The notes: generated by a model from the letters alone, not told the origin. 34,078 bases of DNA from a bacterium (GCA_947502965.1 CANNCG010000001.1:1-34078), one strand, 5' to 3'. Positions 6,172 to 33,900 are shown, counted from the stretch's first letter. Numbers and translations are program-made.

Positions 6172-6181
6172 AGGAAATAAA

Positions 6182-9577: not shown

Positions 9578-9581
9578 CGCC

Positions 9582-10106
9582 GTGGGCATTGTTGACCACG
9601 CTGCGCCTCCGCTTGTAGGCATTATTATGGGAAGTCGGTCTGACTTCCCCGTTATGCAAGACGCCTGTGCTATTTTAGCCGAGTTTAACATTCCCTTTGA
9701 AACAGCTGTTGTATCCGCACACCGCACACCAGAACGCATGGTGGCATATGCCAAAACAGCCTATTCCCGTGGCTTACGGGTCATTATTGCCGGTGCTGGC
9801 GGTGCTGCCCATTTACCGGGCATGGTAGCGTCATTAACCGCACTCCCCGTGATCGGCGTTCCTGTCAAAGCCGCACAATCTTTGGACGGCTGGGACTCCA
9901 TACTCTCTATTTTGCAAATGCCTGGTGGTGTCCCAGTCGCCACGGTTGCACTCAATAACGCCAAAAACGCAGGCCTGTTGGCATTGCAAATCTTGGCCAG
10001 TCATACCCCCGAGCTCTATGCCCGTTTAATGGACTTCAAATCCCATATGCGCGAAAAAATAGAAGGGGATGACAGTCCACTCACAGAGATCCCACCATCG
10101 CGATGA
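9582..10106 (+). CDS. purE: 5-(carboxyamino)imidazole ribonucleotide mutase
   Basis: [27 protein letters not shown] and [19 protein letters not shown] 9582 lies just after the grxD stop; the exact start is uncertain. Confidence 0.85.
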
Positions 10107-12570: not shown

Positions 12571-13410
12571 TTAGGGAAAAACGATAGCGCCAACAGGCCC
12601 ATCCGGCAAAAAGAAATCTGGGTATTCGGAAAAGGTCAAACGCACGGTCTCTTCGTCCTCATCTGCCAAAGAAAAAAGCTTAAACAACGTCACCCCCACC
12701 GCATCTAAAATAAAAGGCTGGTTATAACAATTAAACGTAACACCCCCAGCCGCAACACCTCGGTAGTAGAGCTGTTCCAACACAAATGTCTCCAAAGACA
12801 TACAAGACGCTTCATCTGTTTTGACAATGTCACGCAAACGCAAAATAGTGCCCGCGGGAACACCCACCACCAGATTGTCTAAAAATTGCTTTTTCTCTGG
12901 AAAATCTTGGCGTATATCCAAACGAACACTCACGATATGGCGAGAAAAATAAGCAACATTCCCTTTGATTGTATAACGATACGCAGCCCCATCCTGAACA
13001 TTCTGGGTATTGACGTTGGCTTCCTTTACAAACAAAGAAAACCATTTTTCAACGCGGTTTCGAATGGCGTGATTAACCTGACTTTGGGATAAAACCAACC
13101 CGTAATACGTCACTTGAGGTATCTCCGCCTGAAGGGTCACCTCATGTCCATGAAAACCAGGAGCCTCAAATTTCATTTCTTCAGACACGACCACAAATCC
13201 AGAAGGCTCAAGCTTCTGCAATTCAGAAGACGTTAGCGATGACGCTCTAAACCGAAACCAAAGGGACTCAATAATCTTGCCATCCGTTGACCATACTTCG
13301 TATACAAGCTTCATGAGTACTAAAATTAAGAGGACTATAAGAAAACGTTGCCAATTACTTTTCTTTTTTTTTCGGGGTCTGAATTTTCGATTTGAAATTT
13401 TGTTAAACAT
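12571..13410 (-). CDS. Hypothetical membrane-anchored protein
   Basis: Basic N-terminus (RKFRPRKKKKSNWQR) followed by one TM helix, then an ectodomain without a recognisable motif. Located 6 nt upstream of the MFS gene. Confidence 0.5.
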   Translation of the reverse strand: MFNKISNRKFRPRKKKKSNWQRFLIVLLILVLMKLVYEVWSTDGKIIESLWFRFRASSLTSSELQKLEPSGFVVVSEEMKFEAPGFHGHEVTLQAEIPQVTYYGLVLSQSQVNHAIRNRVEKWFSLFVKEANVNTQNVQDGAAYRYTIKGNVAYFSRHIVSVRLDIRQDFPEKKQFLDNLVVGVPAGTILRLRDIVKTDEASCMSLETFVLEQLYYRGVAAGGVTFNCYNQPFILDAVGVTLFKLFSLADEDEETVRLTFSEYPDFFLPDGPVGAIVFP

Positions 13411-13738
13411 AGTCAGGGCATCCTATCAGAGCCCGTCATGTGCATCAATCATCAGAAAATATCAAAAAACAACAAAAATGTCGCACCACTACTACATACC
13501 TCTACCTAAAAAAACAACAAAATAACATTTTTGAATTATTTCCGCAGCACCAAGTCCTATGCGTTGCGCCTATTTTCAAGCAAGCCACACGGCTATAAGT
13601 CACTAATATTTTCAGGTTTAATATCGCTTTATTTTGGGAACCCCCTACTCAAAAGAGAAATAAAACAGGACAAAAGCATCTAAATTCAGAGATAAAAAAC
13701 AGCCCTTTTTCAGAAAAAAAGAAAGGTTGGTATGGTTT

Positions 13739-14224
13739 ATGCTAAAAACCCTCTTTACAATGAACAACATTATTACGCGTACCACATTTGGAATTCTTCT
13801 TTTTATCCTTTTAGGAACAATCCAAGTTTCTGCAATAGACGCAATCAAAGGGGTACAGCCACAAAAGCTTGCCAGAACCCTTTACAGCAGAGATATGGGT
13901 GCCGGCTATCAAGGAACCTTTTTTATTAAGAGCCCCGAATTAATTGAAATTGGAAACGTTATGCTCAAAAAGTCTGGAGTTCAGTACACCCTCACAAACG
14001 AGAATACCCGTGGCCGACTACCACATTATATAACAACTGAAGCAGCGGTCGCCGTTATCGATACAGAGGCACAATCAGAGGCCCTCAGATCCGTACATGC
14101 CCGTACAACCTCATTCTCTGAAGTAAATCAGCAAGTGCAGGCACAGCCAGAGAATGCCACAGCCGCCGCTATTCAGAGAAACGGGGCACTTTTCTCTGAT
14201 GTTTCAGATTTATTGCAACAATAA
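13739..14224 (+). CDS. Hypothetical small exported protein (paralogue 1)
   Basis: Signal-like N-terminus ...TTFGILLFILLGTIQVSA|IDAIKG. Start uncertain (TTG 13727, ATG 13739 or ATG 13760). Preceded by an AT-rich 0.3-kb intergenic region. Confidence 0.5.
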   Translation: MLKTLFTMNNIITRTTFGILLFILLGTIQVSAIDAIKGVQPQKLARTLYSRDMGAGYQGTFFIKSPELIEIGNVMLKKSGVQYTLTNENTRGRLPHYITTEAAVAVIDTEAQSEALRSVHARTTSFSEVNQQVQAQPENATAAAIQRNGALFSDVSDLLQQ

Positions 14225-20831: not shown

Positions 20832-20890
20832 TTGACTTATGATTTAAAAAAAACAAATAATGACGCGATATATAAAATATCGCGATTATT
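20832..20890 (+). promoter_or_regulatory. Putative sigma70 promoter with overlapping operator-like palindrome upstream of the prepilin gene
   Basis: TTGACT (20832-20837), N18, AATAAT (20856-20861). The palindrome AATAAT-ga-CGCGATAT-ataaa-ATATCGCG-ATTATT spans 20856-20890. Confidence 0.35.
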
Positions 20891-20919
20891 CTAGGGGTTT
20901 TACAAAAAGGAGTATCGTC

Positions 20920-21318
20920 ATGAATCAGTCAGGGTTTAGTCTTATCGAATTGGTTATTGTTATCGCCATTATGGGATTGTTGGGGATGGCCGCTGTACCC
21001 AGTTTTAGTGCCATACAAAACAAAACCAAAAACACGTCTTTCAAATCTACCGCACATACCATTGAAATGGCCCTAGAGACCTATGTATTGGACAAGGGCG
21101 CGTATCCTAGTGGTCAAAACGTCAGTGCCTCAGCATTGGTCGAAACACTTATGACGGCAGGACTACTCACTACCGTCCCAATAAATCCATTCACAGGGAA
21201 GGCTATCGCAGAAACAGATGCCAAAGGGCGGTTATCCTATAGTCAGACCGAGTCCGGATACACACTCACTGTCTATGGCAGCGATACAGACACCCCGATT
21301 GCGACCTTGGTGCGATAA
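20920..21318 (+). CDS. Prepilin-type N-terminal cleavage/methylation domain protein (PulG/ComGC-like pseudopilin or type IV pilin)
   Basis: MNQSG|FSLIELVIVIAIMGLLGMAAVP class III signal. AGGAG lies 8 nt upstream of ATG 20920. Confidence 0.8.
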   Translation: MNQSGFSLIELVIVIAIMGLLGMAAVPSFSAIQNKTKNTSFKSTAHTIEMALETYVLDKGAYPSGQNVSASALVETLMTAGLLTTVPINPFTGKAIAETDAKGRLSYSQTESGYTLTVYGSDTDTPIATLVR

Positions 21319-21352
21319 GGTCCCTCCCCAGAGAGGGGCCTTATTTTTTTTC
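21318..21352 (+). terminator. Rho-independent terminator of the prepilin gene
   Basis: AAGGTCCCTC-cccaga-GAGGGGCCTT followed by ATTTTTTTT. A second hairpin, TTGAGGAT...ATCCTCAA (21354-21386), lies between it and the fliA stop. Confidence 0.7.
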
Positions 21353-21404: not shown

Positions 21405-22046
21405 TCATCCATCTATCATTGGCTGACTCAATGTCGCCAGCTTAGGGCCACCAATGACTTTTCTGAGCTTCTCTATGGCTTTTTTATAGATACGCGATAT
21501 TTGAGATTCGGACACCCCTATGAGTTCACCTATTTGTTTAAAGGTTAAATCATCTTTGGTATGGGACAGCACTATTTTTCGCTCACGCATCGACAATACT
21601 TTCATCGCTTCTTGCAATTGAACACCTGTTTCAATTTCATTTTCAAAATCGGCCCTGTCTTGAATGGCCATCAAAATATAGGCAGCATCTGTCACCCAAT
21701 CGTACAAGCGTGAGGGATCTGCACGCGTAATAAAGCGAATATGGTCTTTCATCGCACCAACAATACGGGCCCTCGCCAGCGGCCAAATATCGGGGCAGCG
21801 GCTAGGAACCCAGACCTTTACCGTCTCCAAAAACTCCAAATGGGCCACCGTTTTGAGGTCATCTATTTCGCTATCCACCACATGGTAGGGCAAATGACGA
21901 CTATAACGACGTACAATGGCATTTACTTTTGGCTGAAAGCGGATTAAGACCGCATTCACATGTTTAGACAACAATTGAACTTTTAGCTGATTCAAAACAG
22001 GCAATTCCAATTTTTCCCACAACACGGTCAATGTGTCTGACATCAA
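21405..22046 (-). CDS. fliA: Sigma-70 family sigma factor, FliA/sigma-28-like
   Basis: Region 4 HTH: LSMRERKIVLSHTKDDLTFKQIGELIGVSESQISRIYKKAIEKLR. Last gene of the flagellar operon, as in Pseudomonas/Vibrio. The ATG overlaps the upstream stop. Confidence 0.7.
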   Translation of the reverse strand: MMSDTLTVLWEKLELPVLNQLKVQLLSKHVNAVLIRFQPKVNAIVRRYSRHLPYHVVDSEIDDLKTVAHLEFLETVKVWVPSRCPDIWPLARARIVGAMKDHIRFITRADPSRLYDWVTDAAYILMAIQDRADFENEIETGVQLQEAMKVLSMRERKIVLSHTKDDLTFKQIGELIGVSESQISRIYKKAIEKLRKVIGGPKLATLSQPMIDG

Positions 22047-22312
22047 GAAATGCGAAGCTCCGCGAGCACCAATGTCCAGTACGCATTCTCACATTCTTTG
22101 TCCGCCAATTCTTGCGGGAGCAGTACTTGGGCCAACATTTCAGCCAAAGACTTTACCTTATCTGAAATCCACAGTTTGTCTTCGTCCGACAATCCCGCCA
22201 AATTTTCCAAACGAATATCCACATAATTGGGACCGGTTGCCCTATGACGCACACGCCGGTAGTCACTTTGGGGAATATGCTCTAGAAAAAAACGGCGGTC
22301 GTCATCACTCAT
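22043..22312 (-). CDS. Hypothetical 89-aa acidic protein, translationally coupled between flhA and fliA
   Basis: ATGA overlaps at both ends. No recognisable family. Occupies the position where flhF/flhG normally lie. Confidence 0.55.
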   Translation of the reverse strand: MSDDDRRFFLEHIPQSDYRRVRHRATGPNYVDIRLENLAGLSDEDKLWISDKVKSLAEMLAQVLLPQELADKECENAYWTLVLAELRIS

Positions 22313-24384
22313 TCGCTGATCATTCCAATAGATTGGACCTTGATTTGCGGCACAATCTCATTGTACGAGAGCACCGACAACTGGGGGAAATTCCTCTCCG
22401 AGAACCGCTTTAAATGGACCCGAAGACGGGGAGAACAGAGCGAAACAGGGGCCTTTTCCATTTTTCGAAAGTTGGCCATATGCTCCCCAATCTGACTCAA
22501 TACCTGCTCTCCCAGTTGTGGATCCAAAGCCAGAAATGAGCCATATTCCGATTGATGCACAGAATTAATCATGAGCTCTTCTAAACGCGGATCAATCGTA
22601 AACACAGTCAGGACGTCATCCGTATCCACATAGCCTGTACAAATCTGACGTGCCAAGGCTTGACGCACATATTCTGACAGCAAATTGGTATCACGAGACA
22701 CATGCGCATAGTCTGCCAAACGCTCCAAAATAGTAGACAAATCACGAATCGACACACGCTCCCGAACAAGAGATTGCAACACTTTGTGCACCTGCCCCAA
22801 AGAGAGCATATCGGGAACCAATTCTCTCACGATAGCCGCATTCGAATTTTTGACAAGCTCCAACAGGGATTGGACGTTTTGACGGGTCATAATCTCATCC
22901 GCATGCTGCTTGATGGCATCCGAAAAATGATTGGCAATAAAGTCTGTAATATTTTGTGCCGGGATCAGGTTGTCTTGCAAAGCCTCCAACTGATCCTCAG
23001 ACACCCATGCGCCTGGAAAAGCCGTGATCGGGTCTGTCGCCTCGATGCTATCAATGCCCTTGCGCTTGAGTTCAGCGGACGATTTTGGCACAAAGAAGTG
23101 GCCAGGTAACGCCTCCCCCACCGCGATTTTGGTACCCCGAATATCGATTTGATAGTGATTGGGCGGCAAGCTCAAATCGTCCATCACCCGCACCCCAGGA
23201 ATAACAAACCCCAATTCCTGTCCAATGTGATACCGCACCAAGGTAATCCGTTCCAGTAGTGGCCCATTTTGACTGGGGTCAATCAACGGCACCAAATTGC
23301 GCCCCGTTTTGAGACTAATAGGATCCAAGCCCAATGTGTTGAGCAAATTCTCTGGCTTTTTGAGCGCATCTTTGGCCGCTTCTTGGGTAGAATCTGTCGC
23401 CATTTCATCTTCTTGGCGCTGGGTTTTCATAATAAAGGCAGCCAAAGCACCCATCCCTACACCACAGGCCAAAAAAGGAACAGTCGGCATACCTGGAATA
23501 ATACCAAACAACATGAGCACCACAGACGTCACCGCAAAGGCCTTGGGCTGTGAAAAAATCTGGGCAGATACATCGGAGCCCAGACTCGCATCAGACGCCG
23601 ATTTTGTCACGACCAAACCTGTTGCGATCGAAATCAACAAAGCCGGAATCTGTGCCACCAAACCATCCCCAATGGTGAGGGTGGTGTAAAGGGTCATCGC
23701 CTCCCCTATTGCCAGATCTTTCTGGAAACGGCCAATAATAATACCACCGATGATGTTTACAAAAACAATAATAATACCGGCAATGGCGTCCCCTTTGACG
23801 AATTTATTCGCACCATCCATAGACCCAAAAAACGTGGATTCGCGCTCCAGTTTTTTACGACGCTCTCGGGCCTGTTCCGCATCGATCAAGCCTGCGTTCA
23901 TATCCGCATCAATACTCATCTGCTTACCAGGCAAGGCATCCAAAGTAAAACGCGCAGCAACCTCAGCAACACGCTCAGACCCTTTTGTAACCACCAAAAA
24001 TTGGACAAGGGTAATAATAGCAAAGGCCACAATCCCCACCACAAAATTGCCACGGGTGACAAATCCGGCAAAAGCCGCGACCATATGTCCGTCAAAGTCA
24101 GGGCCCAATGACAAAATCAATTTGGTCGACGCCACGTTAATCGAGAGACGAAACAGCGTTGTAATGAGCAACAAAGAGGGGAAGGCGGCAAAATCCAAAG
24201 GCTGTTTCAAATACATAGAGACCAAAAGAATGGCCACAGAAATAGCCAGATTGATTACCATCAAATAATCCAACATAATGGTTGGAATAGGCATGATCAT
24301 GACGCCGATGATCAGGATAACAATCGTCGCCAACAAGACGTCTGCTAAACTAAAAAGTTCTCTTAATTGTCTGAAACCAAACAT
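22309..24384 (-). CDS. flhA: Flagellar-type T3SS export gate protein FlhA (FHIPEP family)
   Basis: N-terminal polytopic domain (IMPIPTIMLDYLMVINLAISV..., FVKGDAIAGIIIVFVNIIGGIIIG) plus a large cytoplasmic domain. ATG 24384 lies 4 nt after the flhB stop and is preferred over 24438. Confidence 0.9.
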   Translation of the reverse strand: MFGFRQLRELFSLADVLLATIVILIIGVMIMPIPTIMLDYLMVINLAISVAILLVSMYLKQPLDFAAFPSLLLITTLFRLSINVASTKLILSLGPDFDGHMVAAFAGFVTRGNFVVGIVAFAIITLVQFLVVTKGSERVAEVAARFTLDALPGKQMSIDADMNAGLIDAEQARERRKKLERESTFFGSMDGANKFVKGDAIAGIIIVFVNIIGGIIIGRFQKDLAIGEAMTLYTTLTIGDGLVAQIPALLISIATGLVVTKSASDASLGSDVSAQIFSQPKAFAVTSVVLMLFGIIPGMPTVPFLACGVGMGALAAFIMKTQRQEDEMATDSTQEAAKDALKKPENLLNTLGLDPISLKTGRNLVPLIDPSQNGPLLERITLVRYHIGQELGFVIPGVRVMDDLSLPPNHYQIDIRGTKIAVGEALPGHFFVPKSSAELKRKGIDSIEATDPITAFPGAWVSEDQLEALQDNLIPAQNITDFIANHFSDAIKQHADEIMTRQNVQSLLELVKNSNAAIVRELVPDMLSLGQVHKVLQSLVRERVSIRDLSTILERLADYAHVSRDTNLLSEYVRQALARQICTGYVDTDDVLTVFTIDPRLEELMINSVHQSEYGSFLALDPQLGEQVLSQIGEHMANFRKMEKAPVSLCSPRLRVHLKRFSERNFPQLSVLSYNEIVPQIKVQSIGMISE

Positions 24385-24388
24385 AGGG

Positions 24389-25468
24389 TTATAGGGTATC
24401 CTGTCGATGTCCGCGCTTTTTGCGCAAATTATACACAAAGGCCAATATTTGAGCTACCGCCTTATAGTATTGCGGCGGCACTTCCGTGTCCACCTCCACT
24501 ACAGGGAACAAGGCTCTGGCAAGCGCCACATTTTCTACAATGACAATATTATTCTCTGAGGCAATACGCTTTATGGTTTCCGCAATTAATAACTTCCCTT
24601 TGGCCACCACCACAGGGGCTTTCATCTTGTCCGGTTTGTAGGCCAATGCAATGGCAATATGCGTGGGGTTTGTCACCACCACATCAGCCCCTGGCACAGC
24701 CCCCATTTGTCTCCCCATAGACATCTGCCTTGCCGCTTCTTTTTGACGCTGCTTGATTTGAGGATCTCCTTCGAGACGCTTGTATTCATCTTTGATTTCT
24801 TTTTTGGTCATTTTCATAGACTTCAAATGCTCATGTTGTTGATAAAAATAATCAAAAATAGCAACTGCAATATAAAACATACCGACCCGAACAACTACTT
24901 TCATCACCAAATTCCCGGTAAAAGACATGCCCTGCCATGGATCCAAACTTTGTGACAAGATCACAATGGGAAACTCTTCCACAACAACCCCGTAAATCAA
25001 CCATATGATCACTATCATTTTAATCGTTGACTTGACCAATTCTACATATTGTTTGAGGGCAAAAAACTTCTTAAACCCCTCAATGGGGTTCAGTTTTTCT
25101 AATTTAGGGGCAATGGAGGACATTGAAAAAAGAAATCCCGTTTGCAGCGATTCGATAATCAAAGCCGTCATAAATGTCGCAAAAAACAAAGGCGCCATAG
25201 CAAATAAAAAAGAATACACCGTATCTTTTAGCAAATTCCCCACAACGCTTTCAGAAAACACCAAAGGAATATAACCAAAAGAATTCCTTAAAATGATTTC
25301 CATTTCTGCCCAAAGATGACCGACAGAGGATTTCAAGGTAAAGAAAGAGACAAAAATCATCGTGACGGAGGTGATATCTTTGCTCTTGGCAATTTGCCCT
25401 TTTTCCCTGGATTCCCTCAATTTATGGGGGGTAGGTTCCTCTGTTTTATCCCCAGAATCCTCACCCAT
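24389..25468 (-). CDS. flhB: Flagellar-type T3SS substrate-specificity switch protein FlhB
   Basis: GDKTEEPTPHKLRESREKGQIAKSKD start, four TM segments and the NPTH autocleavage site (VVVTNPTHIAIALAY). Confidence 0.9.
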   Translation of the reverse strand: MGEDSGDKTEEPTPHKLRESREKGQIAKSKDITSVTMIFVSFFTLKSSVGHLWAEMEIILRNSFGYIPLVFSESVVGNLLKDTVYSFLFAMAPLFFATFMTALIIESLQTGFLFSMSSIAPKLEKLNPIEGFKKFFALKQYVELVKSTIKMIVIIWLIYGVVVEEFPIVILSQSLDPWQGMSFTGNLVMKVVVRVGMFYIAVAIFDYFYQQHEHLKSMKMTKKEIKDEYKRLEGDPQIKQRQKEAARQMSMGRQMGAVPGADVVVTNPTHIAIALAYKPDKMKAPVVVAKGKLLIAETIKRIASENNIVIVENVALARALFPVVEVDTEVPPQYYKAVAQILAFVYNLRKKRGHRQDTL

Positions 25469-26242
25469 TTATGTGGTCCCCAAATAAAAAAATACGCGCA
25501 ACAAGTGTTCTGAAATGGCTTCCATAATGGTGTAAATCTGAGAGACTAAACCTGGCGCAATGGCCCAAAAAACCAATACACTGACCATGGGTTTGATTTG
25601 AAATCCCATTTGAAACACATTGATTTGTTCTGCCACTTTGTTGAGCATGCCAAACCCAAAATCTACCATGAATACCACCAACAAAATTGGGGCAGACAGC
25701 TGTACCGCCAATCCAAAAATATAGGTCCCTAGCTGGGCAAGATACAGCATTCCTGCGCCAAAGTTGGGAATCTTTCCTACCGGCAACAGATTAAAGCTCT
25801 GCATCAAGGCGGACAAAACCAAATGATGCCCATCAATGGCCAAAAACATCATCGTCGCCGTCCACTTGAGCAACAAAGACAACAATGACATGGAACGTCC
25901 ACTAGACGGGTCCAAAAGAGAGGCCACACTCAAACCCGCCTGCGTGTCCATGAGACTGCCGGCAAATTCCATCCCCGTGACCAACAGATCGGTCACAAAA
26001 CCGATCATTGCACCAATGAGCAATTCAGAAAAAAAAGCAAAACCAAAGGTTAACACATTGTCTGGGACGTCTTGTGAAACCGGTACCAAAAAAATAAAAA
26101 GCCCCGAAATCCAAAACATCAGCATGACCTTGGGCAACAGGGGCAATTCTTTTCTACTCAATACAGGCGCCGTAATAAACAGACCTATGAGACGGGTCAT
26201 AATGAGAAAAAAAACAGTGACAACCTGAAGGTTAATAAACAT
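25469..26242 (-). CDS. fliR: Flagellar-type T3SS export gate protein FliR
   Basis: 257-aa polytopic protein between fliQ and flhB, with a FliR-like N-terminus (FFLIMTRLIGLFITAPV). Confidence 0.85.
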   Translation of the reverse strand: MFINLQVVTVFFLIMTRLIGLFITAPVLSRKELPLLPKVMLMFWISGLFIFLVPVSQDVPDNVLTFGFAFFSELLIGAMIGFVTDLLVTGMEFAGSLMDTQAGLSVASLLDPSSGRSMSLLSLLLKWTATMMFLAIDGHHLVLSALMQSFNLLPVGKIPNFGAGMLYLAQLGTYIFGLAVQLSAPILLVVFMVDFGFGMLNKVAEQINVFQMGFQIKPMVSVLVFWAIAPGLVSQIYTIMEAISEHLLRVFFYLGTT

Positions 26243-26245
26243 AAA

Positions 26246-26515
26246 CTACCGAGAATACAACGGAATGTTACGCCAAAGCTCCAACGTCATTTCCATGACA
26301 ATTCTGGCCACCCAAGGAAAGGTAGCCACTACCACTAGCAAAACAACCACCATTTTAGGAACAAAAGTCAGAGTTTGCTCTTGCACCTGTGTCACCGCCT
26401 GTAAAAGCGCAATCACCAAACCAATCAACAAACCTACGCCCACACTGGGCAAACTTGCCAATAAGATGACCTGAACGGCAGAATTTAGTATACCGGTTAC
26501 AATATCAATGTCCAT
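26246..26515 (-). CDS. fliQ: Flagellar-type T3SS export gate protein FliQ
   Basis: 89-aa two-TM protein with ...GLLIGLVIALLQAVTQVQEQTLTFVPK, characteristic of FliQ/SctS. Confidence 0.9.
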   Translation of the reverse strand: MDIDIVTGILNSAVQVILLASLPSVGVGLLIGLVIALLQAVTQVQEQTLTFVPKMVVVLLVVVATFPWVARIVMEMTLELWRNIPLYSR

Positions 26516-26518
26516 AAT

Positions 26519-27559
26519 TCACGACCTCCTCAGCTTCTGTGTTATGATTGTCTCTTGCACCCAGCTATCCGTCTTATTAGCAAGAGGCATTTCTACTGTA
26601 GCCGGTCCATCTGATCGGAATACCAAATGAACAGGATAATAGCTACCAGATTGCGGAATGATCTCAAGAACCATATTTTTTTTACTCTGCGGGGGCAAGT
26701 TTAGACTAAGGAGCTCCACAATAGCCGGAAATCCTGTTCCCCCAACATTCCCAGTCTGGAGCACTTGGGTGCCATTAAGACGTACCACTGCCCTCGCAAT
26801 ACCTCCCACTGGCGAAAAAAACAACATCACACGCCTAGCAACACGGTCTGGATTTTCCAGATTAGCATGAATTTTATAGGTTACCCCATAGTTCCCTTTT
26901 AAAGGGTATTCTGATAGAGGATTTCGCACAAAGGGCAGTCCGCCTATGGGAATCTCACTCACAATATCCCCAATCCTGTAAAAAACATCCCTTACCATAG
27001 TAGGGGAAAGATACACCATCGGCGTGACATCTCTCGCCATGACCGCATAGGAAGCATCTGGATACTCAGGATCGATGACACGGGATTCAAACACGGTGTC
27101 CACATCGGACTCACATTCAAAAATACCAGAAACAATCTCATCTGGCTTGATCAGCACATCCAAGAGCATGCTTTCCTGCGTACTAAGGGACCACATAGCC
27201 TTTGTTTTGGGCACTTGATTCCAGTATCTGGAAACCGCCTTATGTCCTGCAAAGACCTCATCTAAAACAGGTCCCGCCGCCGCCAATAAAGCCCCCATTT
27301 TTCCAGAGCCAGCTGTTGCTTTTACGGTAATGATAAATCTCAAGGGAATCGATGTCACATTTTTATGATGGTACAGCAGACGTAGTGACTTCCTTGCAGG
27401 CACGGGATAGATAAACAAGGATGCAGGCTCTGAAAGACGTTCTGGACTATTGCTCACGACCAATAGGTCAACAGCAGACACCGTCAACGACAACCATCCC
27501 CAGAAAAAAAGAATACTGCTTTTAAAAAAAAAGAAGCTGAGAGGTCGCCCCACACTCAT
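26519..27559 (-). CDS. Hypothetical secreted/periplasmic protein embedded between fliP and fliQ
   Basis: The ATG overlaps the fliP stop (ATGA), and the stop lies 3 nt before the fliQ start. Signal-like N-terminus ...ILFFWGWLSLTVSA|VD. The remaining ~320 aa have no recognisable family. Confidence 0.65.
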   Translation of the reverse strand: MSVGRPLSFFFFKSSILFFWGWLSLTVSAVDLLVVSNSPERLSEPASLFIYPVPARKSLRLLYHHKNVTSIPLRFIITVKATAGSGKMGALLAAAGPVLDEVFAGHKAVSRYWNQVPKTKAMWSLSTQESMLLDVLIKPDEIVSGIFECESDVDTVFESRVIDPEYPDASYAVMARDVTPMVYLSPTMVRDVFYRIGDIVSEIPIGGLPFVRNPLSEYPLKGNYGVTYKIHANLENPDRVARRVMLFFSPVGGIARAVVRLNGTQVLQTGNVGGTGFPAIVELLSLNLPPQSKKNMVLEIIPQSGSYYPVHLVFRSDGPATVEMPLANKTDSWVQETIITQKLRRS

Positions 27560-28302
27560 CGGTAGCTAACCAAAAGCCCCTGTATAATCAGATTCCACCC
27601 ATCCGTTAGCACAAAAAGCAATATTTTAAAGGGCAAGGAAATCATAGCCGGAGATAACATAAACATTCCCAAAGACAATAAAATATTAGAAACAATCAAA
27701 TCAATGACAATAAAGGGAATAAACAACAAAAAGCCCACTTGAAATGCCGTTTTGAGTTCTGAAATAATAAAGGCAGGAATCAACACAAAAAAAGGCACTT
27801 CTTCATAATCCATCGTATACGGCACTTTTGAAAATTCCAAAAACAAAGCCAAATCTTTTTCTCTCGTGTACTTCAACATAAAAATCTTGAGGGGTTTAGA
27901 GGCTTCATCAAGGGCCTGCATCTGAGAAAGTGTCCCTTCTTGATAGGGCTTAATCGCGTTATTGCTCACCTGATCCCAAACAGGGGTCATGACAAATACG
28001 CTCAAGAATAGGGCCAAGGACACAATAACCATATTGGGAGGCGCCTGCTGGGTACCAATGGCCTGACGAACCATACTCAAGACAATCACTATACGCAAAA
28101 AGCAAGTCGTGGACATCAGAAAAAAAGGAATCAGACCAATTGCAGACAAAAAGAAAAGAAGATTAAGGGTTCTGCTAAAATTTTGGGGCGTTGCCAATGC
28201 ATCTTGGACACCCAAATTTAAAAAGCCAGGGTCTTGTTGTGCATACACTGTCACAGGAACCAGCACCAAAAACCCCACAAAAACCCAAAACAATCGCTTC
28301 AT
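27556..28302 (-). CDS. fliP: Flagellar-type T3SS export gate protein FliP
   Basis: Signal peptide plus SAIGLIPFFLMSTTCFLRIVIVLSMVRQAIGTQQAPPN and LIPAFIISELKTAFQVGFLLFIPFIVIDLIVSNILLSLGM, hallmark FliP/SctR blocks. Confidence 0.95.
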   Translation of the reverse strand: MKRLFWVFVGFLVLVPVTVYAQQDPGFLNLGVQDALATPQNFSRTLNLLFFLSAIGLIPFFLMSTTCFLRIVIVLSMVRQAIGTQQAPPNMVIVSLALFLSVFVMTPVWDQVSNNAIKPYQEGTLSQMQALDEASKPLKIFMLKYTREKDLALFLEFSKVPYTMDYEEVPFFVLIPAFIISELKTAFQVGFLLFIPFIVIDLIVSNILLSLGMFMLSPAMISLPFKILLFVLTDGWNLIIQGLLVSYR

Positions 28303-28538
28303 TTTAGCTTATCCAAGACCTTTATTTCTTTTGCATTAATACCCAACAAAAACTCATGATCTCTCACCGAAACCAACATCAATGAAATACCCTGATCCAA
28401 GCCTTTGCGATCTAAAACTTTAATTTCTTCTGTAAAGGGGTGCTTTTGAGCACGTTTTGCCATTTTCGAAAACACAAACAACGCGCCCCCCAACAAGGTC
28501 AAAGAAAAAAGAACCTGAAGGGAGTACCCGATCGTCAT
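28299..28538 (-). CDS. fliO: FliO-like single-pass membrane protein
   Basis: 79 aa with one TM helix, then ...ISLMLVSVRDHEFLLGINAKEIKVLDKL. Immediately upstream of fliP and overlapping it. Confidence 0.7.
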   Translation of the reverse strand: MTIGYSLQVLFSLTLLGGALFVFSKMAKRAQKHPFTEEIKVLDRKGLDQGISLMLVSVRDHEFLLGINAKEIKVLDKLK

Positions 28539-28541
28539 ATA

Positions 28542-29054
28542 TTAGGTGTTCGGGGCTGATTTAATAGCCGTAATACGAAGTCCATAATTGTTATCCACAG
28601 CAACCACCTCACCTTGGGCGATAACCTGTCCATTTACAACCAAATCCAATGGTTCTCCCACCAGACGATCCAGCTCCACAATGGCACCATCAGACAGCTC
28701 AAATACATCTTTAAGAGACACCTGACAACGACCAAGCTCTACAGACACAGTAACAGGAATGCGGTTAAACACATCTTCCTCCAATTTTTGGCCACTCGTA
28801 TTGGCACTGGGCGTCAATACCGGAAATTCAACATCTGCCACTGCAGGGCGCGACGAAGACGCCAAGTCTGGAGACGGAGTGTCCCAAGAAAAGGAAGGGG
28901 CATCGGAGGCCGTTTCTTTAATCTTGGTCTCAGCCTTTGTTTTTGGATCGGCCTTGGGCTCACGACTGACAGGGAACCCATCTCCTCCAAAGGCATCTTT
29001 TAAAACAGGATCAATACCGTGTAAGGGATCATCAAATACTTTTTTCTTAGCCAT
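28542..29054 (-). CDS. fliN: Flagellar motor switch protein FliN (SpoA domain)
   Basis: C-terminal IPVTVSVELGRCQVSLKDVFELSDGAIVELDRLVGEPLDLVVNGQVIAQGEVVAVDNNYGLRITAI. ATG 29054 (MAKKKVF) overlaps the parA-like stop by 8 nt. Confidence 0.85.
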   Translation of the reverse strand: MAKKKVFDDPLHGIDPVLKDAFGGDGFPVSREPKADPKTKAETKIKETASDAPSFSWDTPSPDLASSSRPAVADVEFPVLTPSANTSGQKLEEDVFNRIPVTVSVELGRCQVSLKDVFELSDGAIVELDRLVGEPLDLVVNGQVIAQGEVVAVDNNYGLRITAIKSAPNT

Positions 29055-29787
29055 GCGAAAGCACCTCATTAATTAACCGTCGATAGTCATCAGCAGCACT
29101 AGAACGTGGGGAAAATTCAAAAATTGTTTGTCTATAACCTGGAGACTCAGACAGACCTACGCTTAGCCGAATGGGCGATGAAAGTTGCCCGGGGAATACA
29201 CGCTCAAGACTGTCCATGATATGGGCTGTTTTACGATTACGCTTATCATAAAACGTTGGTACAATTTTACAAATACGGATTTCCTTTCCGAGGATTTTAT
29301 TCACGATATCAATATTATTCAATAGCTGCTTAATTCCAACCAAAGACAAATATTCCATGGACACTGGCAATAAAAGTTCATCCGAAAAAATAAGAGAATT
29401 TTGATTCATCAAATTCATCGACGGCGCACAATCAACAATAATAAAATCATATCCCGTTAGAGATGCCAAGCGACGACTCAAGACATGCTCTCTGCCTTTT
29501 TCTGTTGCCAAGCGCATCTCTGCTGGGAAAAGTCGTTCATTTGCACAAATAATATCCAAATTGGGCCTAGCAGAAACGATGCATTCGGATACAGGTCTGA
29601 GGCCCATGACCACGTCATAAACCGTAACATCTGATTCCACACCCAAGTAATATCCGGCAGACCCTTGGGGATCTGTGTCCACGATCAAAACGCGTTTACC
29701 AAGAAGGGCCAGACCGTGGGCCATATTGACAACTGTACTGGTTTTACCGGTCCCACCTTTGTAATTAATGACTGCCAACTTACGCAT
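29047..29787 (-). CDS. ParA/Soj-type P-loop ATPase encoded between fliM and fliN
   Basis: Deviant Walker A AVINYKGGTGKTSTVVN, then LIVDTDPQGS and IIVDCAPS. There is no parB-like neighbour. Confidence 0.85.
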   Translation of the reverse strand: MRKLAVINYKGGTGKTSTVVNMAHGLALLGKRVLIVDTDPQGSAGYYLGVESDVTVYDVVMGLRPVSECIVSARPNLDIICANERLFPAEMRLATEKGREHVLSRRLASLTGYDFIIVDCAPSMNLMNQNSLIFSDELLLPVSMEYLSLVGIKQLLNNIDIVNKILGKEIRICKIVPTFYDKRNRKTAHIMDSLERVFPGQLSSPIRLSVGLSESPGYRQTIFEFSPRSSAADDYRRLINEVLSHG

Positions 29788-29801
29788 AATTTGTCACTTT
29801 A

Positions 29802-31226
29802 TTACAATTCATCGTCGAGGTCATCCCAAGAAAATTCACTATCATCGGCATCACCATGAACCTCTTCTTGCCCATGTGTTTCGGCATTTTCAGACGCTTC
29901 ATCTTCATCTTCTGAAAAATCAAAAAGCGCATCTGAAGAGTCTGTCTGCGCATCGTCGTGATCGTCTTCGTAATCCAATTCATCTTCAATTTCAAATTCA
30001 TGATCGTCTACCACTGGCTCATGTAAAAAATCTTCCTCAAGCAACGTTTCCTCCTCAGGTATGATAGACGGGGACGCCACAGCTACAGCCGCCGCCACAG
30101 CACCCAGCATGGCACCCGGAACAGCCACCGGCACAGACATTGGACGCACATACACTTCTTCTTTGAGAGAAGATAGGCTGTCTTCAATTTTAACAGAAGG
30201 GGCAACCTCTATGGGTTGTCGAGACGCAGGATTTTTCTCCACAACAGGCTTCTTCTCCGGCGGGAGACTCACACCCTTCTGCCCAAAACGGTGCAATTGA
30301 ATCGACAGTTTACGCGATGGCGAAACCCCAGGATATCCAAGCCATGGCTCAGAATCGGCCCCGAAATAAACCTTCAAGGGCTGATCTGTAACCGTATCCA
30401 AAACAATCACATCCCCCACACGAAGTTGGCGCAATTCCGACATTGTCAGAGAAGCAGTCCCAAGAGAAACAGAAACATTCACCTTCAAGGCATGAAGGGT
30501 TTGCTTAGAAAAATTAACCTGCTTCTCTTTTTTCGGCTTATTGATTTGCGACTGATGCACCAATTCCCGCAACAGTGTATTGGGGTACGCAATCACAAAC
30601 TTACGCAGTTCTTGTTGCCCAAAAACCAAATAAAAACCAAATTGGACATAGGCCTCTCGAAAAGAAATCTTAGGATTTCTACGATACGGCCCCACAGCAA
30701 AATCAATTACGGCGTGCGCAGGCGGAATACGCCACGTTTTAGCGACTTCGGGCAACAAAGCTTCGATTTGCGCCTTGAGTATACTCGTTTCCATGGACGT
30801 AAAGGAATCTGAATGCCCCACACTCCCAGATCCGCCAACCAAACGATTGATCATCATATCTGCCAAATCCCAATCAAAAAGCAAATTAATTTTATGCCCC
30901 GCAGAAAAAACGACATCGGCCTGGACAACTTTTTCTTTCGCATTCTCTAAAAATTCTTTATAGCTCATTTGTGTGGCAAGGACAGTATGCAGTTCAACCT
31001 TAATGTCCATATCCGTAGAGAATTTCACACAAAGACGTTCTGCAAGACGGTAATGCAAATAATGCAAAAAACGCAATTGCTCACGTGTTAAACTGTCAAA
31101 ATTACTGGTACGAATCGGGTGGATCTCAATAGCATCTACGGACTCCCGTTGATGCACCGTTGTCCAATCCCCAATGGCAGGAGCAAGTTTAATCGTTCTA
31201 TGAAACTTTGGGCTATACTTTTGCAC
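29802..31226 (-). CDS. fliM: Flagellar motor switch protein FliM with atypical termini
   Basis: IRTSNFDSLTREQLRFLHYLHYRLAERL, INRLVGGSGS and a C-terminal SpoA domain (SLTMSELRQLRVGDVIVLD...) match FliM. There is no LSQxEIDxLL motif in residues 1-37. A 159-aa extension follows residue ~315. Confidence 0.85.
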   Translation of the reverse strand: MQKYSPKFHRTIKLAPAIGDWTTVHQRESVDAIEIHPIRTSNFDSLTREQLRFLHYLHYRLAERLCVKFSTDMDIKVELHTVLATQMSYKEFLENAKEKVVQADVVFSAGHKINLLFDWDLADMMINRLVGGSGSVGHSDSFTSMETSILKAQIEALLPEVAKTWRIPPAHAVIDFAVGPYRRNPKISFREAYVQFGFYLVFGQQELRKFVIAYPNTLLRELVHQSQINKPKKEKQVNFSKQTLHALKVNVSVSLGTASLTMSELRQLRVGDVIVLDTVTDQPLKVYFGADSEPWLGYPGVSPSRKLSIQLHRFGQKGVSLPPEKKPVVEKNPASRQPIEVAPSVKIEDSLSSLKEEVYVRPMSVPVAVPGAMLGAVAAAVAVASPSIIPEEETLLEEDFLHEPVVDDHEFEIEDELDYEDDHDDAQTDSSDALFDFSEDEDEASENAETHGQEEVHGDADDSEFSWDDLDDEL

Positions 31227-31919
31227 CTAGATTCGCTCCAATCTCATTTTTAATGGGGTTCCATCAGACAATAAGGGAGACCCTTTGTAGATAACGACTT
31301 CTAAACGTTCGCGCTTCCCCGTCCCAATGTCCGAGACAAGAACAAGCTCCCCATCTGGATAGGGGACGACCACGGGGTCATCGAATATCGTAGCAAGGGC
31401 AGCCGAGGAACCTGTTTCCCCACTGATTAGAGGAGAGAGACTAACACTCAACTGTTTTTCTGCTTCATAGGTCCGTTTCCGTTTCATTTCTGTGGCGAGT
31501 TCCAACTCCCGACGTTTTACCGTAGGACCTGTACCAGCGGCACCTTCAAATACAACCCGGAGAAGTACCATAGATTTGAGGAGAGTATCATACACGCTGA
31601 CCTCATAGCCGTCATCCTGTTTAACAATACTCTGCACAGGCCCCCTCCCTATAACAGCACCGGAAGAATCCGAATACCAAACCATAGCCCCCAGTAATTT
31701 TGACTTCAAAAAATAATCCACGCGCATCCCGACAGTCAGGGAAGATTTCTGCTCCCCAACCTGTTTTTTTACCTCAGATTCTACCCATTCCTTCATCAAC
31801 GGAGAGTCAAAATTCATATTCATATCTACGGACATGAGAGGACAAGAAAGAACAAGTAGCAAAAAGAAAAAGAGAAAGCAGATTCTACCCAACATCCCAC
31901 AAAAGCGTATTTTAGACAT
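31227..31919 (-). CDS. Putative lipoprotein at the position normally occupied by fliL
   Basis: MSKIRFCGMLGRICFLFFFLLLVLS|C lipobox-like signal. Start at ATG 31919, overlapping the upstream stop by 8 nt. No recognisable FliL motif; placement is by synteny only. Confidence 0.55.
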   Translation of the reverse strand: MSKIRFCGMLGRICFLFFFLLLVLSCPLMSVDMNMNFDSPLMKEWVESEVKKQVGEQKSSLTVGMRVDYFLKSKLLGAMVWYSDSSGAVIGRGPVQSIVKQDDGYEVSVYDTLLKSMVLLRVVFEGAAGTGPTVKRRELELATEMKRKRTYEAEKQLSVSLSPLISGETGSSAALATIFDDPVVVPYPDGELVLVSDIGTGKRERLEVVIYKGSPLLSDGTPLKMRLERI

Positions 31920-32577
31920 AAAAAAATATCTGATCCCCCTCTGAGAGCGCATCTAGGGAAGCCTGCGACTCGTGCGGATTATCTTGTTGCTGACGCCCCT
32001 GTTGAAATCCAGAGTGGGAAGGGAACTCGTCAAACGCCAGGTCAACTTCACCCATTTGCACAAAACGCACCAGCACAGAGCGGTCTAGGATATCGGACAA
32101 ACGGGTCTGCAAGACGGATTTTTGATCCTGCGCTTTTGCAAACAAATCCTCGCCAGCGAGCTGCACCACGATGACGAGACCCTGCGCATTTTTTTCAAAC
32201 CGAACACGTATCATTAAGGGCGCTTCTTTGGGCATCACCACAGGCATACCCAGGATGGATCGCACTTCCTGAAGAATACTGACAGAGAGATCCGGCAATT
32301 GATCCATGCCAAAGGCAGGCCCAGCAACCATCCCCTGCAACAACTGTGTCCCTAACTGAAGGTCAGACATACTAGACTCAGAGGCCAAGCGCCCCTCTAT
32401 ATCATCCTCCGCAGACCCCATGAGGAAGCTACCATCTTCCTGCGCGATCATGCGAACACCCGCGTCTTCTTTACTGGCCTGCTGAAACATAGAACCAAAG
32501 GGCATGTCGCTGCCGGGCGTTTCAGCCCCACGAGACACCCCCCCAGAAAAAAACGGTGGCAGAGACTCTAACCGCAT
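31912..32577 (-). CDS. Hypothetical protein at the fliK position, weakly FliK/T3S4-like C-terminal region
   Basis: Synteny (first gene, before the fliL position and fliM). The segment PLMIRVRFEKNAQGLVIVVQLAGEDLFAKAQDQKSVLQTRLSDILDRS... followed by a Q-rich tail loosely resembles the Flg_hook/T3S4 pattern. 221 aa is short for FliK. Confidence 0.35.
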   Translation of the reverse strand: MRLESLPPFFSGGVSRGAETPGSDMPFGSMFQQASKEDAGVRMIAQEDGSFLMGSAEDDIEGRLASESSMSDLQLGTQLLQGMVAGPAFGMDQLPDLSVSILQEVRSILGMPVVMPKEAPLMIRVRFEKNAQGLVIVVQLAGEDLFAKAQDQKSVLQTRLSDILDRSVLVRFVQMGEVDLAFDEFPSHSGFQQGRQQQDNPHESQASLDALSEGDQIFFYV

Positions 32578-32589
32578 TGCATACCGCGC

Positions 32590-33651
32590 CTACGCTGCAG
32601 CCTTTGGCTTTTCTTGCAATTCTTTTTTAATTTTATACCGATAGCCATCGAGAAGCTGTCCTAATTTTTTGGAATACCGACCTTGTTTAATAAATGATTT
32701 CTTAATAGGCAAACGTTGATGCAAACGCAGTCCGTTCCGCTCCGCAATTTCGATCAACTGGGAAATAGAGAGTGCCTGATTACGCCCATACGATGGGTTT
32801 CGTCCTACGTAAATCCGGCCTAAGTCGCGAACACCCGCTTGAATAAAAGGCTCAATATCTGGGTTCAACTCCAAGGGAACCGTCACAGCAATATCTGAAG
32901 GTAACAAATTTTTTGCGACCTCCAAAGCCGCCAACATATCTTTTTTCGACGTTGGGGAGTGCCCCTCAAACTTTGTGCCAGGTTCAGGGGTGAAATTCTG
33001 AAGCGTAAACTCATGGATATGCCCATACTGTTTGTGAAGGGAGGCGATTTCTTTCATGACATCCCTGCGATGAGAGGCCGATTCACCAATACCCACCATA
33101 ATCCCTGTATTAATAGGAAACCCCAATTTTCCTGCCCACTCCACCACTTTGAGCCGCAATTCCAACCGTTTCCCTGGAGATTCAGGATAGATTTTGGCGA
33201 CATGGGCCTCATCCACAGAATCCAACATAATCCGACATACGGCCGCAACTTCATACAGACGTTTGAGCTCTACAGGACTCAAAAAACCCAGTTCCACCAC
33301 AGGAATAAAGCCCTCTAAAAAACCCAACTCACTAATGGTATACACGTAGTCCACATAAGACTCAAATCCCCACAAATCCAACAGCGCCCGCACATGCGGA
33401 AATTTATCAGGTCGCTCACCAGAGATATACAGCACCTCTCTCGCGCCTTCAGCTCTGGCTTGCTTGCACAACTTAATGGTGGAATAAGGAACCATCAGGC
33501 TATCTCTTTTACGAAACCCACAATAAGGACAATGGTTACGACATAACCGAGACAAAGACATCGGCAACGCCAAAGAGTAAGTCAACGCATCCGGCGCGTC
33601 CTCTAATGACAACTGAATATCGTCTTCCACGCTTTTGGTTACTTGCTCCAC
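32590..33651 (-). CDS. cofG: Radical SAM protein, CofG-like (FO synthase subunit 1 family)
   Basis: LTYSLALPMSLSRLCRNHCPYCGFRK (CxxxCxxC in CofG context), LYISGERPD and GFLSPVELKRLYEVAAVCRIMLDSV. GTG 33651 has AGGAG 8 nt upstream; the ORF-track start is 33657. Confidence 0.6.
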   Translation of the reverse strand: MEQVTKSVEDDIQLSLEDAPDALTYSLALPMSLSRLCRNHCPYCGFRKRDSLMVPYSTIKLCKQARAEGAREVLYISGERPDKFPHVRALLDLWGFESYVDYVYTISELGFLEGFIPVVELGFLSPVELKRLYEVAAVCRIMLDSVDEAHVAKIYPESPGKRLELRLKVVEWAGKLGFPINTGIMVGIGESASHRRDVMKEIASLHKQYGHIHEFTLQNFTPEPGTKFEGHSPTSKKDMLAALEVAKNLLPSDIAVTVPLELNPDIEPFIQAGVRDLGRIYVGRNPSYGRNQALSISQLIEIAERNGLRLHQRLPIKKSFIKQGRYSKKLGQLLDGYRYKIKKELQEKPKAAA

Positions 33652-33900
33652 AAACACAACTCCTAATTTAACATTTTTGTTACTACTTAAGCATCTTCAC
33701 ACATTCATGTAAAAAAATACGTCAACTAAATAAATCCAACTATTTTTCGAGATACAGAAAAAAAAATCTTATACGCCCTACCTAGCAATGGCCTATAAGG
33801 GCATTGAAAGTGCCATCATAACATTCTTTTTATAGAATACCAGCCTATGGATCGCACTTGAATTTACAGCAAACGGCCCCCCAGAAATACATTAAGCGTC

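Follow-up and report, generated by a model that had tools for sequence, protein, structure and literature searches.

An operon for the C-ring and flagellar export gate of Marinamargulisbacteria with a Soj/ParA-type ATPase and other accessory genes among its members

The FlhF/FlhG pair explains the number and placement of flagella in most non-enteric bacteria. The EIDALL motif of FliM and FliY is the docking site for phosphorylated CheY (CheY-P) and for FlhG. FlhG, also named FleN, YlxH or MotR, is a MinD-like ATPase that sets the number and place of flagella via this EIDAL peptide. The flagellar genes of Pseudomonas, Vibrio and Legionella lie in a block with the order fliK-L-M-N-O-P-Q-R-flhB-flhA-flhF-flhG-fliA. 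The hallmarks of FlhG are an N-terminal DQAxxLR helix and a C-terminal amphipathic membrane-targeting helix, and its closest relatives are the MinD/FlhG proteins (PMC12826062). Neither a literature search nor that review of FlhF and FlhG yielded a case of ParA-type positioning of the basal body or C-ring (PMC12826062). Here we describe a flagellar gene cluster with a Soj/ParA-type ATPase gene between fliM and fliN, found on the minus strand of a 34,078-nucleotide (nt) stretch of bacterial DNA, GCA_947502965.1 CANNCG010000001.1:1-34078 (the whole stretch is called the window).

The genes of the cluster, for the C-ring (sorting platform), the export gate, a sigma factor and several lineage-specific accessory proteins, form an operon that is coupled in translation and conserved throughout the class. 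We consider it fairly probable that this is the C-ring and export-gate operon of a Marinamargulisbacteria flagellum, with accessory genes that take the roles proposed below, and each specific role is less certain than this overall reading. The data support a flagellum that is differently positioned or regulated and possibly non-chemotactic. No description of this cluster or of its combination of accessory genes was found in the literature search.

Gene identities were taken from Pfam matches at the gathering score and NCBIfam matches at the cut-off of each model. The cluster is listed below in the direction of transcription, with lengths in amino acids (aa) and scores in bits.

32590..33657, minus strand: CofG-like radical-SAM homolog (NCBIfam NF004884 CofG, 245.5 vs 209)
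31912..32577, minus strand: 221-aa protein in the FliK position, candidate short hook-length or substrate-switch protein (T3S4-like)
31227..31952, minus strand: 241-aa protein in the FliL position, N-terminal hydrophobic helix, possible lipoprotein or anchor
29802..31226, minus strand: FliM, 474 aa (Pfam FliM 39.4 vs 27; FliMN_C 45.3 vs 23.8)
29047..29787, minus strand: orphan Soj/ParA-type deviant Walker-A ATPase, 246 aa (Pfam AAA_31 154.7; CbiA)
28542..29069, minus strand: FliN (TIGR02480 94.2 vs 84; gene callers start it at 29054, 170 aa)
28299..28538, minus strand: FliO (Pfam FliO 29.4 vs 22)
27556..28302, minus strand: FliP (TIGR01103 249.6 vs 217.45)
26519..27559, minus strand: 346-aa secreted protein with two predicted beta-sandwich (jelly-roll-like) domains (hydrophobic leader ...TVSA/VD and a structure model)
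26246..26515, minus strand: FliQ (Pfam Bac_export_3 77.9; TIGR01402 83.9 vs 88.9, just under the cut-off)
25469..26242, minus strand: FliR (TIGR01400 174.5 vs 168.6; Pfam Bac_export_1)
24389..25468, minus strand: FlhB (TIGR00328 364.3 vs 349.25; Pfam Bac_export_2)
22309..24384, minus strand: FlhA, 691 aa from the ATG at 24384 (TIGR01398 786 vs 772.1; Pfam FHIPEP)
22043..22312, minus strand: 89-aa acidic protein, overlapping flhA and the sigma factor gene by 4 nt each
21405..22046, minus strand: divergent sigma-70-family factor with regions 2 and 4 (TIGR02937 56.1 vs 42.9; Pfam Sigma70_r4)

An earlier note, made from the sequence of the window, had described 14 minus-strand open reading frames (ORFs) between 32577 and 21405, none separated from the next by more than 14 nt and with six overlaps among them. 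Computation of the junctions bears out this unbroken chain, its strand and its coordinates. The six overlaps are those of the 221-aa and 241-aa ORFs (41 nt), of the ATPase gene and fliN (23 nt), and, each of 4 nt, of fliO and fliP, fliP and the 346-aa ORF, flhA and the 89-aa ORF, and the 89-aa ORF and the sigma factor gene. The 241-aa ORF abuts fliM and fliR abuts flhB (0 nt), 14 nt separate fliM from the ATPase gene, and 3 nt separate fliN from fliO, the 346-aa ORF from fliQ, and fliQ from fliR. A seventh overlap, of flhB and flhA (50 nt), exists only with an extended TTG start of flhA (mechanical ORF to 24438); gene callers take the ATG at 24384, and the 691-aa call is the one used in identical contigs (L015, L016). 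The CofG-like gene is a 15th ORF, 12 nt upstream of the 221-aa ORF. Because of this spacing and because the gene is syntenic in most relatives, the start coordinate of the earlier note was probably one gene short, and the operon probably consists of 15 genes of which the CofG-like gene is the first. The same note had counted three inserts that break the known gene order. The inserts are real but the count is too low: the CofG-like gene makes a fourth that is not flagellar.

The assignments of FliM, FliN, FliO, FliP, FliQ, FliR, FlhA, and FlhB with its NPTH motif, made in the earlier note from the sequence, are confirmed by Pfam and NCBIfam. The NPTH autocleavage motif of FlhB stands in the context VVTNPTHIAIAL in the translation. 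The cut-offs of the flagellar equivalog models are passed, narrowly, by FliP, FliR, FlhB and FlhA, and FliQ falls 5 bits short. All injectisome (Sct) models score lower than the flagellar models and below their own cut-offs. By these comparisons the export gate is of the flagellar type and not that of an injectisome. The 221-, 241-, 346- and 89-aa ORFs belong to no Pfam or NCBIfam family (sub-threshold Pfam matches were searched to E values of up to 10). The cluster contains no gene for a GTPase of the signal recognition particle (SRP) type or for a MinD-type protein. No SRP54-type domain that would indicate FlhF is present in it, and the interval between flhA and the sigma factor gene holds the 89-aa ORF alone.

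By sequence relationship the host of the window is a member of the Margulisbacteria, class Marinamargulisbacteria. The closest species-representative genome with the 346-aa gene is that of 'Bacterium isolate M30B43', placed by GTDB in p__Margulisbacteria; c__Marinamargulisbacteria; o__SXXA01; its G+C content of 47% is similar to that of the window (PMC8382752). Proteins named 'Candidatus Marinamargulisbacteria' are among the nearest relatives of the cluster ATPase, which are 54-99% identical to it. The exact FliP of the window is also encoded on NCBI GCA_964202675.1 (CAXNJR010000012), and likewise on an ENA contig of 34 kb whose gene order is the same. Margulisbacteria are described as the sister phylum of Cyanobacteria (PMC6784892).

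The layout recurs in at least ten independent assemblies, namely L001, L002/L003, L005, L015/L016, L019, L020, L021, L024, L025, L030 and the P0092 contig. L001 to L003 are ENA contigs (114 kb, 43 kb) and one JGI contig, L019 is a 1.92-Mb ENA contig, L020 is a single-cell Marinamargulisbacteria genome, L021 to L026 are marine or lake metagenome contigs, L030 is a Logan assembly, and the P0092 contig is a 137-kb JGI contig (JGI 3300072015). A metagenome scan with FliM yielded 6 loci. Between the window and L019 the gene order is unchanged at identities of 74% for FlhA, 63% for FliP, 60% for the sigma factor, 57% each for the ParA-type ATPase and FlhB, 47% for FliN, 42% for FliM, 40% for the CofG-like protein and 28% for the 346-aa protein. 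The search of related genomes for the 14-gene layout, proposed in the earlier note, thus finds it across deep divergence within the Margulisbacteria. The order is repeated in NCBI, ENA, JGI and Logan assemblies of different samples, the 1.92-Mb and 114-kb contigs included, and this recurrence excludes an assembly or binning artefact or a chimeric contig, to which we give next to no chance. In L001-L003, L015/L016, L019, L020, L024, L025, L030 and the P0092 contig the cluster is flanked by housekeeping genes, and no more flagellar genes occur within 10 kb of the clusters. The rest of the flagellar genes, if any, must therefore be encoded at other loci.

Such loci are listed for 'Candidatus Ruthmannia eludens', a Marinamargulisbacteria intracellular symbiont of Trichoplax H2 with a high-quality genome (PMC6784892). 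Its corresponding cluster comprises peg.1248 (CofG-like), 1249-1250 (hypothetical), 1251 (FliM), 1252 (FliN), 1253 (hypothetical), 1254 (FliP), 1255-1256 (hypothetical), 1257 (FliQ), 1258 (FliR), 1259 (FlhB), 1260 (FlhA) and 1261-1262 (hypothetical) (PMC6784892 supplement 3). Elsewhere in the genome are FliI (232), FlgI (304), FlgH (305), FlgG (307), FlgF (308), FliG-MotA-MotB (420-422), FliF (514), FlgC (518), a 'sigma factor for flagellar operon' (520) and FlgE (763). The genes of FliM, FliN, FliI, FlgI and FliG are transcribed, and so is peg.1249, whose transcript value is among the higher ones (PMC6784892 supplement 3). The paper lists these flagellar genes and never discusses them, its flagellum section being about the other symbiont (PMC6784892). 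The class has dispersed flagellar genes, and the window operon, the module for C-ring and export gate, is the largest block. Judged from R. eludens, the machine served by this module also has an MS ring, rod, L and P rings, hook and stators.

The gene between fliM and fliN was called ParA-type in the earlier note, and this holds. The protein has a KGGTGKT deviant Walker A motif at residues 10-16. Its residues 2-244 align over the full length with residues 7-244 of Thermus Soj (E=4e-34). Its best PDB matches are ParA and Soj proteins (8RAY at 1.8e-37; range 1e-37 to 1e-28), and FlhG (4RZ2) matches at 2.9e-6. It starts MRKLAVINYKGGTGKT without an extension or a DQA motif and ends DYRRLINEVLSHG as Soj does. 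FlhG was therefore rejected as its identity, because Soj is far closer and both the DQAxxLR and the membrane-targeting helix are missing. The gene occupies the position between fliM and fliN in every context examined with DNA or gene calls and is the most constant of the inserts; the identity of its product across the class (57%) exceeds that of FliM or FliN. There is no ParB-like gene in any cluster examined, and no McdB- or TlpT-like adaptor for the ATPase was identified. R. eludens has a separate ParA-ParB pair (peg.501-502). On this sequence evidence the cluster ATPase is an orphan ParA tied to C-ring genes.

The C-ring proteins next to it carry conserved terminal peptides. FliM misses the TIGR01397 equivalog cut-off (72.7 vs 219.6 bits) and is colinear with residues 34-302 of E. 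coli FliM. The GGXG motif that binds FliG is kept (RLVGGSGS, invariant in 5 of 5 sequences and aligned with E. coli NLFGGDG). The CheY-P docking peptide of E. coli FliM, LSQxEIDALL, is absent, as the earlier note had said and the alignment to E. coli FliM bears out; the N-terminus reads MQKYSPKFHRTIKLAPAIGDWTT, homology starts at residue 34, and the N-terminus carries an invariant F..IKL..A.GDWT. At the other end a long acidic tail closes with FSWDDLDDEL (residues 465-474), conserved as FSWDDL(D/E)D in 7 of 8 sequences. FliN has an N-terminal peptide, FDDPLxGIDP(I/V)(M/L)xxAF (residues ~10-27), in 9 of 9 sequences, the version of L030 being FIDPLEEIDPIM. The core of this peptide resembles, by eye, the EIDALL docking motif. 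Two further features belong to the clade of the window: a weaker SFSWD inside FliN and, in that clade only, a hydrophobic Ala/Val-rich stretch in FliM, VPVAVPGAMLGAVAAAVAVASPSII (residues ~362-388), between the SpoA domain and the acidic tail.

We propose that the Soj/ParA-type ATPase would do the job that a MinD-type FlhG does together with FlhF, that is, set the site and number of basal bodies. It would act by ATP-dependent binding to C-ring proteins, with the FliN peptide FDDPLxGIDP(I/V)(M/L), the acidic FliM tail FSWDDLDDEL or both as candidate docking sites. Because it has no membrane-targeting helix, it would probably work from the nucleoid or cytoplasm rather than from the membrane. A logic similar to that of FlhG is plausible for this ATPase by analogy. 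The full form of the proposal, in which the ATPase places and counts flagella via C-ring docking, independently of FlhF and FlhG, and in which a CofG that tolerates loss of its cysteines and a periplasmic double beta-sandwich protein have been co-opted as new flagellar components, is possible and in our opinion doubtful.

The CofG-like gene heads the cluster in the window, L001, L002, L019, L020, L024, L025, the P0092 contig and R. eludens (peg.1248). An intact CxxxCxxC motif occurs in the window (CRNHCPYC), in its clade and in L025. All three cysteines are lost in L019 (6031-7068), L020 (5836-6879) and L024 (140-1195), where the protein is kept at ~40% identity. A basic C-terminal tail, YSKKLGQxxDxY(R/K)YK(I/L)KK, is conserved also in the cysteine-less orthologs. 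CofH is found neither in the 34-kb window nor in the R. eludens table, which has one 'deazariboflavin' entry, for subunit 1. The loss of the cysteines from a protein that is kept, together with the lack of CofH in R. eludens, argues for a role independent of the synthesis of the deazaflavin FO. Since three clades have lost the Fe-S cysteines and still keep the protein, it would have gained a role in the flagellar system that does not need radical-SAM chemistry. From these sequence patterns it may be a pseudoenzyme recruited to that system.

The 346-aa protein between fliP and fliQ, which the earlier note had called a signal-peptide protein, has an N-terminal hydrophobic leader, and it belongs to no known flagellar family. 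Its AlphaFold2 (AF2) model is almost all beta and has two domains (predicted local distance difference test, pLDDT, 85.9; predicted template modelling score, pTM, 0.81). Foldseek returns generic tandem beta-sandwich matches alone (TM score ~0.2), the Pfam match to DUF3370 is sub-threshold (E=0.024), and the profile search against PDB sequences gave noise only. Close homologs (51-99% identical) belong to the clade of the window and, in the contexts examined, lie in the fliP/fliQ slot of L001-L003, L005 and L017. Diverged homologs (28-31%) occupy the slot in L019, L021 and L025, and a 334-aa protein without a Pfam match does so in the P0092 contig. In L024 and L030 the gene is missing and fliP abuts fliQ. 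Distant homologs (416-600 aa, 23-31% identity) are present in Eremiobacterota-type, Armatimonadota and other genomes. In three unrelated genomes, homologs of ~600 aa lie between lpxD and (lpxC-)fabZ-lpxA, beside bamA/skp, in the following lipid-A clusters.

L004 9096-10895: distant homolog of the 346-aa protein
L006 ~4735-6333: distant homolog of the 346-aa protein
L010 ~9227-10861: distant homolog of the 346-aa protein

By their gene neighbourhoods the distant homologs are an uncharacterised family associated with outer-membrane biogenesis. The 346-aa protein would have been recruited from this family, otherwise linked to lipid-A and outer-membrane biogenesis clusters, and would be a periplasmic or outer-membrane-proximal accessory or assembly factor.

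The last gene was described in the earlier note as a sigma-28-like FliA. It does encode a sigma-70-family factor with a FliA-like region 4, but the protein misses the FliA/WhiG cut-off (TIGR02479, 57.7 vs 189.6 bits) and also that of NF005413 (59.7 vs 201). Regions 2 and 4 are 30-33% identical to those of E. coli FliA. The 89-aa ORF before it has syntenic homologs in L001, L002, L019 and L024, with F8, Q15-S16, Y18-R19 and D32 in common. In L030 (16854-17726) and the P0092 contig the sigma factor has 290-298 aa and there is no separate small ORF, and elsewhere the sigma factor has ~200-213 aa. The first ~90 residues of the long sigma factors are colinear with the 89-aa protein in a MAFFT alignment and keep F8, Q15, S16 and D32. 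The 89-aa protein is thus probably a sigma factor module, its detached N-terminal part or a partner of it (a Rosetta-stone type of argument, of moderate strength), and not a substitute for FlhF/FlhG. The earlier statement that this ORF replaces flhF/flhG was probably a misreading of it. The protein would modulate the sigma factor. Two other identities were tried. FlgM was rejected, with no Pfam match at E up to 10 and an hhalign E of 0.22 against E. coli FlgM. FlgV is a flagellar protein with two transmembrane segments and an intramembrane arginine that is reported from Margulisbacteria superoperons (PMC11607428); it was also rejected, as the 89-aa protein, which is acidic, lacks any hydrophobic segment. 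The profile searches proposed in the earlier note accordingly place neither this protein nor the 346-aa protein in a known flagellar family.

The two proteins ahead of FliM are less easily named. The C-terminal domain of the 221-aa family aligns by hhalign with residues 240-316 of E. coli FliK (E=0.022, probability 2%). Pfam Flg_hook (PF02120) gives a weak match in one of eight family members (E=0.062) and none for the window protein. A phmmer library search gave 6 matches, of which the 509-aa match P0169 is spurious (cupredoxin/DUF7282). The sequence comparison is suggestive of a FliK/T3S4-like protein, and the 221-aa protein would then be a short substrate-specificity switch. The 241-aa family has no Pfam match in 10 of 10 members and no PDB sequence match. 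FliL was rejected as its identity, with no Pfam FliL domain and an hhalign E of 0.21 against E. coli FliL. Its AF2 model, of low confidence (pLDDT 62.7), has a helix at 14-35 followed by a small beta domain, then a long helix and finally a beta unit at the C-terminus, and no fold match was found with it. There are syntenic homologs of the 241-aa gene in 9 other loci, and 9 close homologs were found.

The transcription unit is bounded by two further features of the window.

33813..33842, minus strand: promoter-like block TGGTATTCTATAAAAAGAATGTTATGATGG with an extended -10 TGnTATGAT, 156 nt upstream of the CofG-like start
21314..21345, no strand assigned: G+C-rich hairpin with a 13-bp stem, from a terminator-like scan, between the convergent sigma factor and pilin-like genes

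The block of 29-30 nt at 33813-33842 is TGGTATTCnnnAAAAAnAATGTTATGATG and includes the extended -10-like TGTTATGAT. Its core is identical in L001, L002, L003, L015 and L016 in the midst of diverged intergenic DNA, and it sits 150-185 nt upstream of the CofG-like gene across these loci. From this conservation, transcription of the operon probably starts at the block, in agreement with a single transcript. A generic promoter scan of the window performed at chance level. The hairpin after the sigma factor gene is likely the end of the transcription unit. Neither Rfam families nor tRNAs were found in the window.

Some neighbouring genes deserve mention. A type IV pilin-like gene (N-terminal GFSLIELVIV) at 20860-21318 (plus strand) is convergent to the sigma factor gene and keeps this place in close relatives and in some distant ones; in L030 and the P0092 contig a T2SSF gene comes next. 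In L024 the sigma factor gene is followed by an RsbW-like HATPase_c_2 gene (11389-11883), and in L001 (3334-3666) and L002 (2306-2635) a STAS (anti-anti-sigma-like) gene lies ahead of the cluster; neither is present in the window. These genes may exert partner-switching control of the cluster sigma factor. The first ORF of the window (163-1041) may, judged by eye, encode a RhuM/Fic-associated type protein. The G+C content is 0.39-0.42 at 1-1000 and 13001-14000 of the window, and ~0.47-0.50 elsewhere.

Two other explanations compete with the reading as a flagellar operon with recruited accessory genes. The module could serve a secretion-dedicated or filament-less machine, similar to a hook and basal body, that exports proteins or has another role outside swimming and lacks a filament steered by chemotaxis. 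Flagellin, FlgK, FliS, FlgD, FliH, hook-associated proteins, chemotaxis proteins and FlhF are all missing from the R. eludens table, and the cluster is nonetheless kept and transcribed in this intracellular symbiont. The missing docking peptide of FliM, the narrow margins of the equivalog scores and the failure of FliQ to reach its cut-off point the same way. Yet the presence of MotA, MotB, FliG, rod, L and P rings and hook in R. eludens, and of GGXG in FliM, argues for an envelope-spanning rotary motor and not an injectisome, no gene for a secretin, needle or translocon is present in any of the clusters, and the window cluster has no SctJ domain but does encode FliO. Moreover, RAST can overlook che or flagellin-like genes when it annotates a divergent phylum, the FliN peptide that resembles EIDAL could take over CheY docking, and 'Candidatus Margulisbacteria' is among the phyla with flagellins in a flagellin survey (PMC7018530). 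We consider such a machine unlikely, and the suggestion of a secretion-dedicated derivative in the earlier note is not supported, given the passed flagellar cut-offs, the kept GGXG and the motor, rod, hook and ring genes of R. eludens. Its other suggestion, a flagellum positioned or regulated differently, is a reasonable reading in view of the ParA-type ATPase, the non-flagellar inserts and the FliM without a CheY-P peptide.

Alternatively, the non-flagellar genes could be passengers, with the ParA-type ATPase partitioning the chromosome or another cargo, the CofG-like protein making FO and the 346-aa protein acting in envelope biogenesis. All inserts are dispensable in some lineage: the ATPase gene is missing from the R. 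eludens table, the 346-aa gene from L024 and L030, and the CofG-like, 221-aa and 241-aa genes from L030. In addition, the window CofG-like protein passes the CofG cut-off and keeps CxxxCxxC, and relatives of the 346-aa protein are located in lipid-A clusters. This explanation has to account, however, for synteny that holds at FliM identities of 34-42%, for 4-nt gene overlaps, for an ATPase that is without ParB in the cluster while R. eludens has a ParA-ParB pair at another place and that is more conserved across the class than FliM or FliN, and for a CofG-like protein that three lineages keep without its Fe-S cysteines, with no CofH listed in R. eludens. We consider it rather unlikely as well. 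The interpretation as a flagellar operon with recruited genes is itself weakened by the dispensability of the inserts and by several other points. FliN directly follows FliM in the R. eludens table, with no ParA-type gene. The FSWDDL tail of FliM is missing in L024, which has the ATPase, so the docking-site idea is loosely correlated at best. Of two Soj arginines that we take to be DNA-binding, one aligns with an arginine in the cluster ATPase, which makes nucleoid binding uncertain. The homology of the 89-aa protein to the sigma factor N-terminus comprises few conserved residues by MAFFT and is not significant by BLAST, and the FliK assignment of the 221-aa protein is weak (E=0.022-0.062). 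The view of the remaining flagellum comes from one relative in the same class, and the host organism is uncultured.

The Marinamargulisbacteria as a whole class have a nucleoid-partition-type ATPase between fliM and fliN instead of the FlhF/FlhG pair. If the flagellar reading with a positioning ATPase is true, this would be an independent solution to flagellar number and placement, and the ParA positioning family would gain a further kind of cargo. Candidates for new flagellar parts are a split sigma factor, a beta-sandwich protein of the periplasm and a protein derived from CofG that persists after its Fe-S site is lost. The cluster also bears on the use of a transcribed flagellar apparatus without annotated flagellin in the intracellular animal symbiont R. 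eludens. In practice such work is limited by the lack of any cultured member of the group.

The core of the system is a known one, and what sets it apart is the combination of a Soj-type ATPase, a CofG-like head gene, a beta-sandwich insert and a split sigma factor. The window cluster shares the fliM-to-flhA order, the terminal sigma factor, a flagellar-type export gate and an embedded P-loop ATPase of the ParA/MinD superfamily with the Pseudomonas/Vibrio/Legionella block and with the Bacillus fla/che operon. It differs from them in having no flhF, a Soj/ParA-type ATPase between fliM and fliN, a CofG-like gene at the head and a secreted beta-sandwich protein between fliP and fliQ. In the FliK and FliL positions it has proteins that cannot be recognised or are weakly FliK-like, its sigma factor is below the FliA cut-off with a 90-aa N-terminal module that is detached here and fused elsewhere, and its FliM has an acidic tail and no CheY-P peptide. 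The R. eludens cluster differs from that of the window in having no gene listed between those of FliM and FliN. With FlhG the cluster ATPase shares the deviant Walker A superfamily and a gene position inside a flagellar export operon, beside C-ring genes with conserved terminal peptides, but it has neither the FlhF-activating N-terminal helix nor the C-terminal amphipathic helix, and the cluster encodes no FlhF to partner it. Like PpfA/ParC of chemoreceptor arrays and McdA of carboxysomes, it is a small ParA that has no ParB and whose gene lies next to those of the cargo it would position; it differs from them in that the presumed cargo is the flagellar basal body or C-ring.

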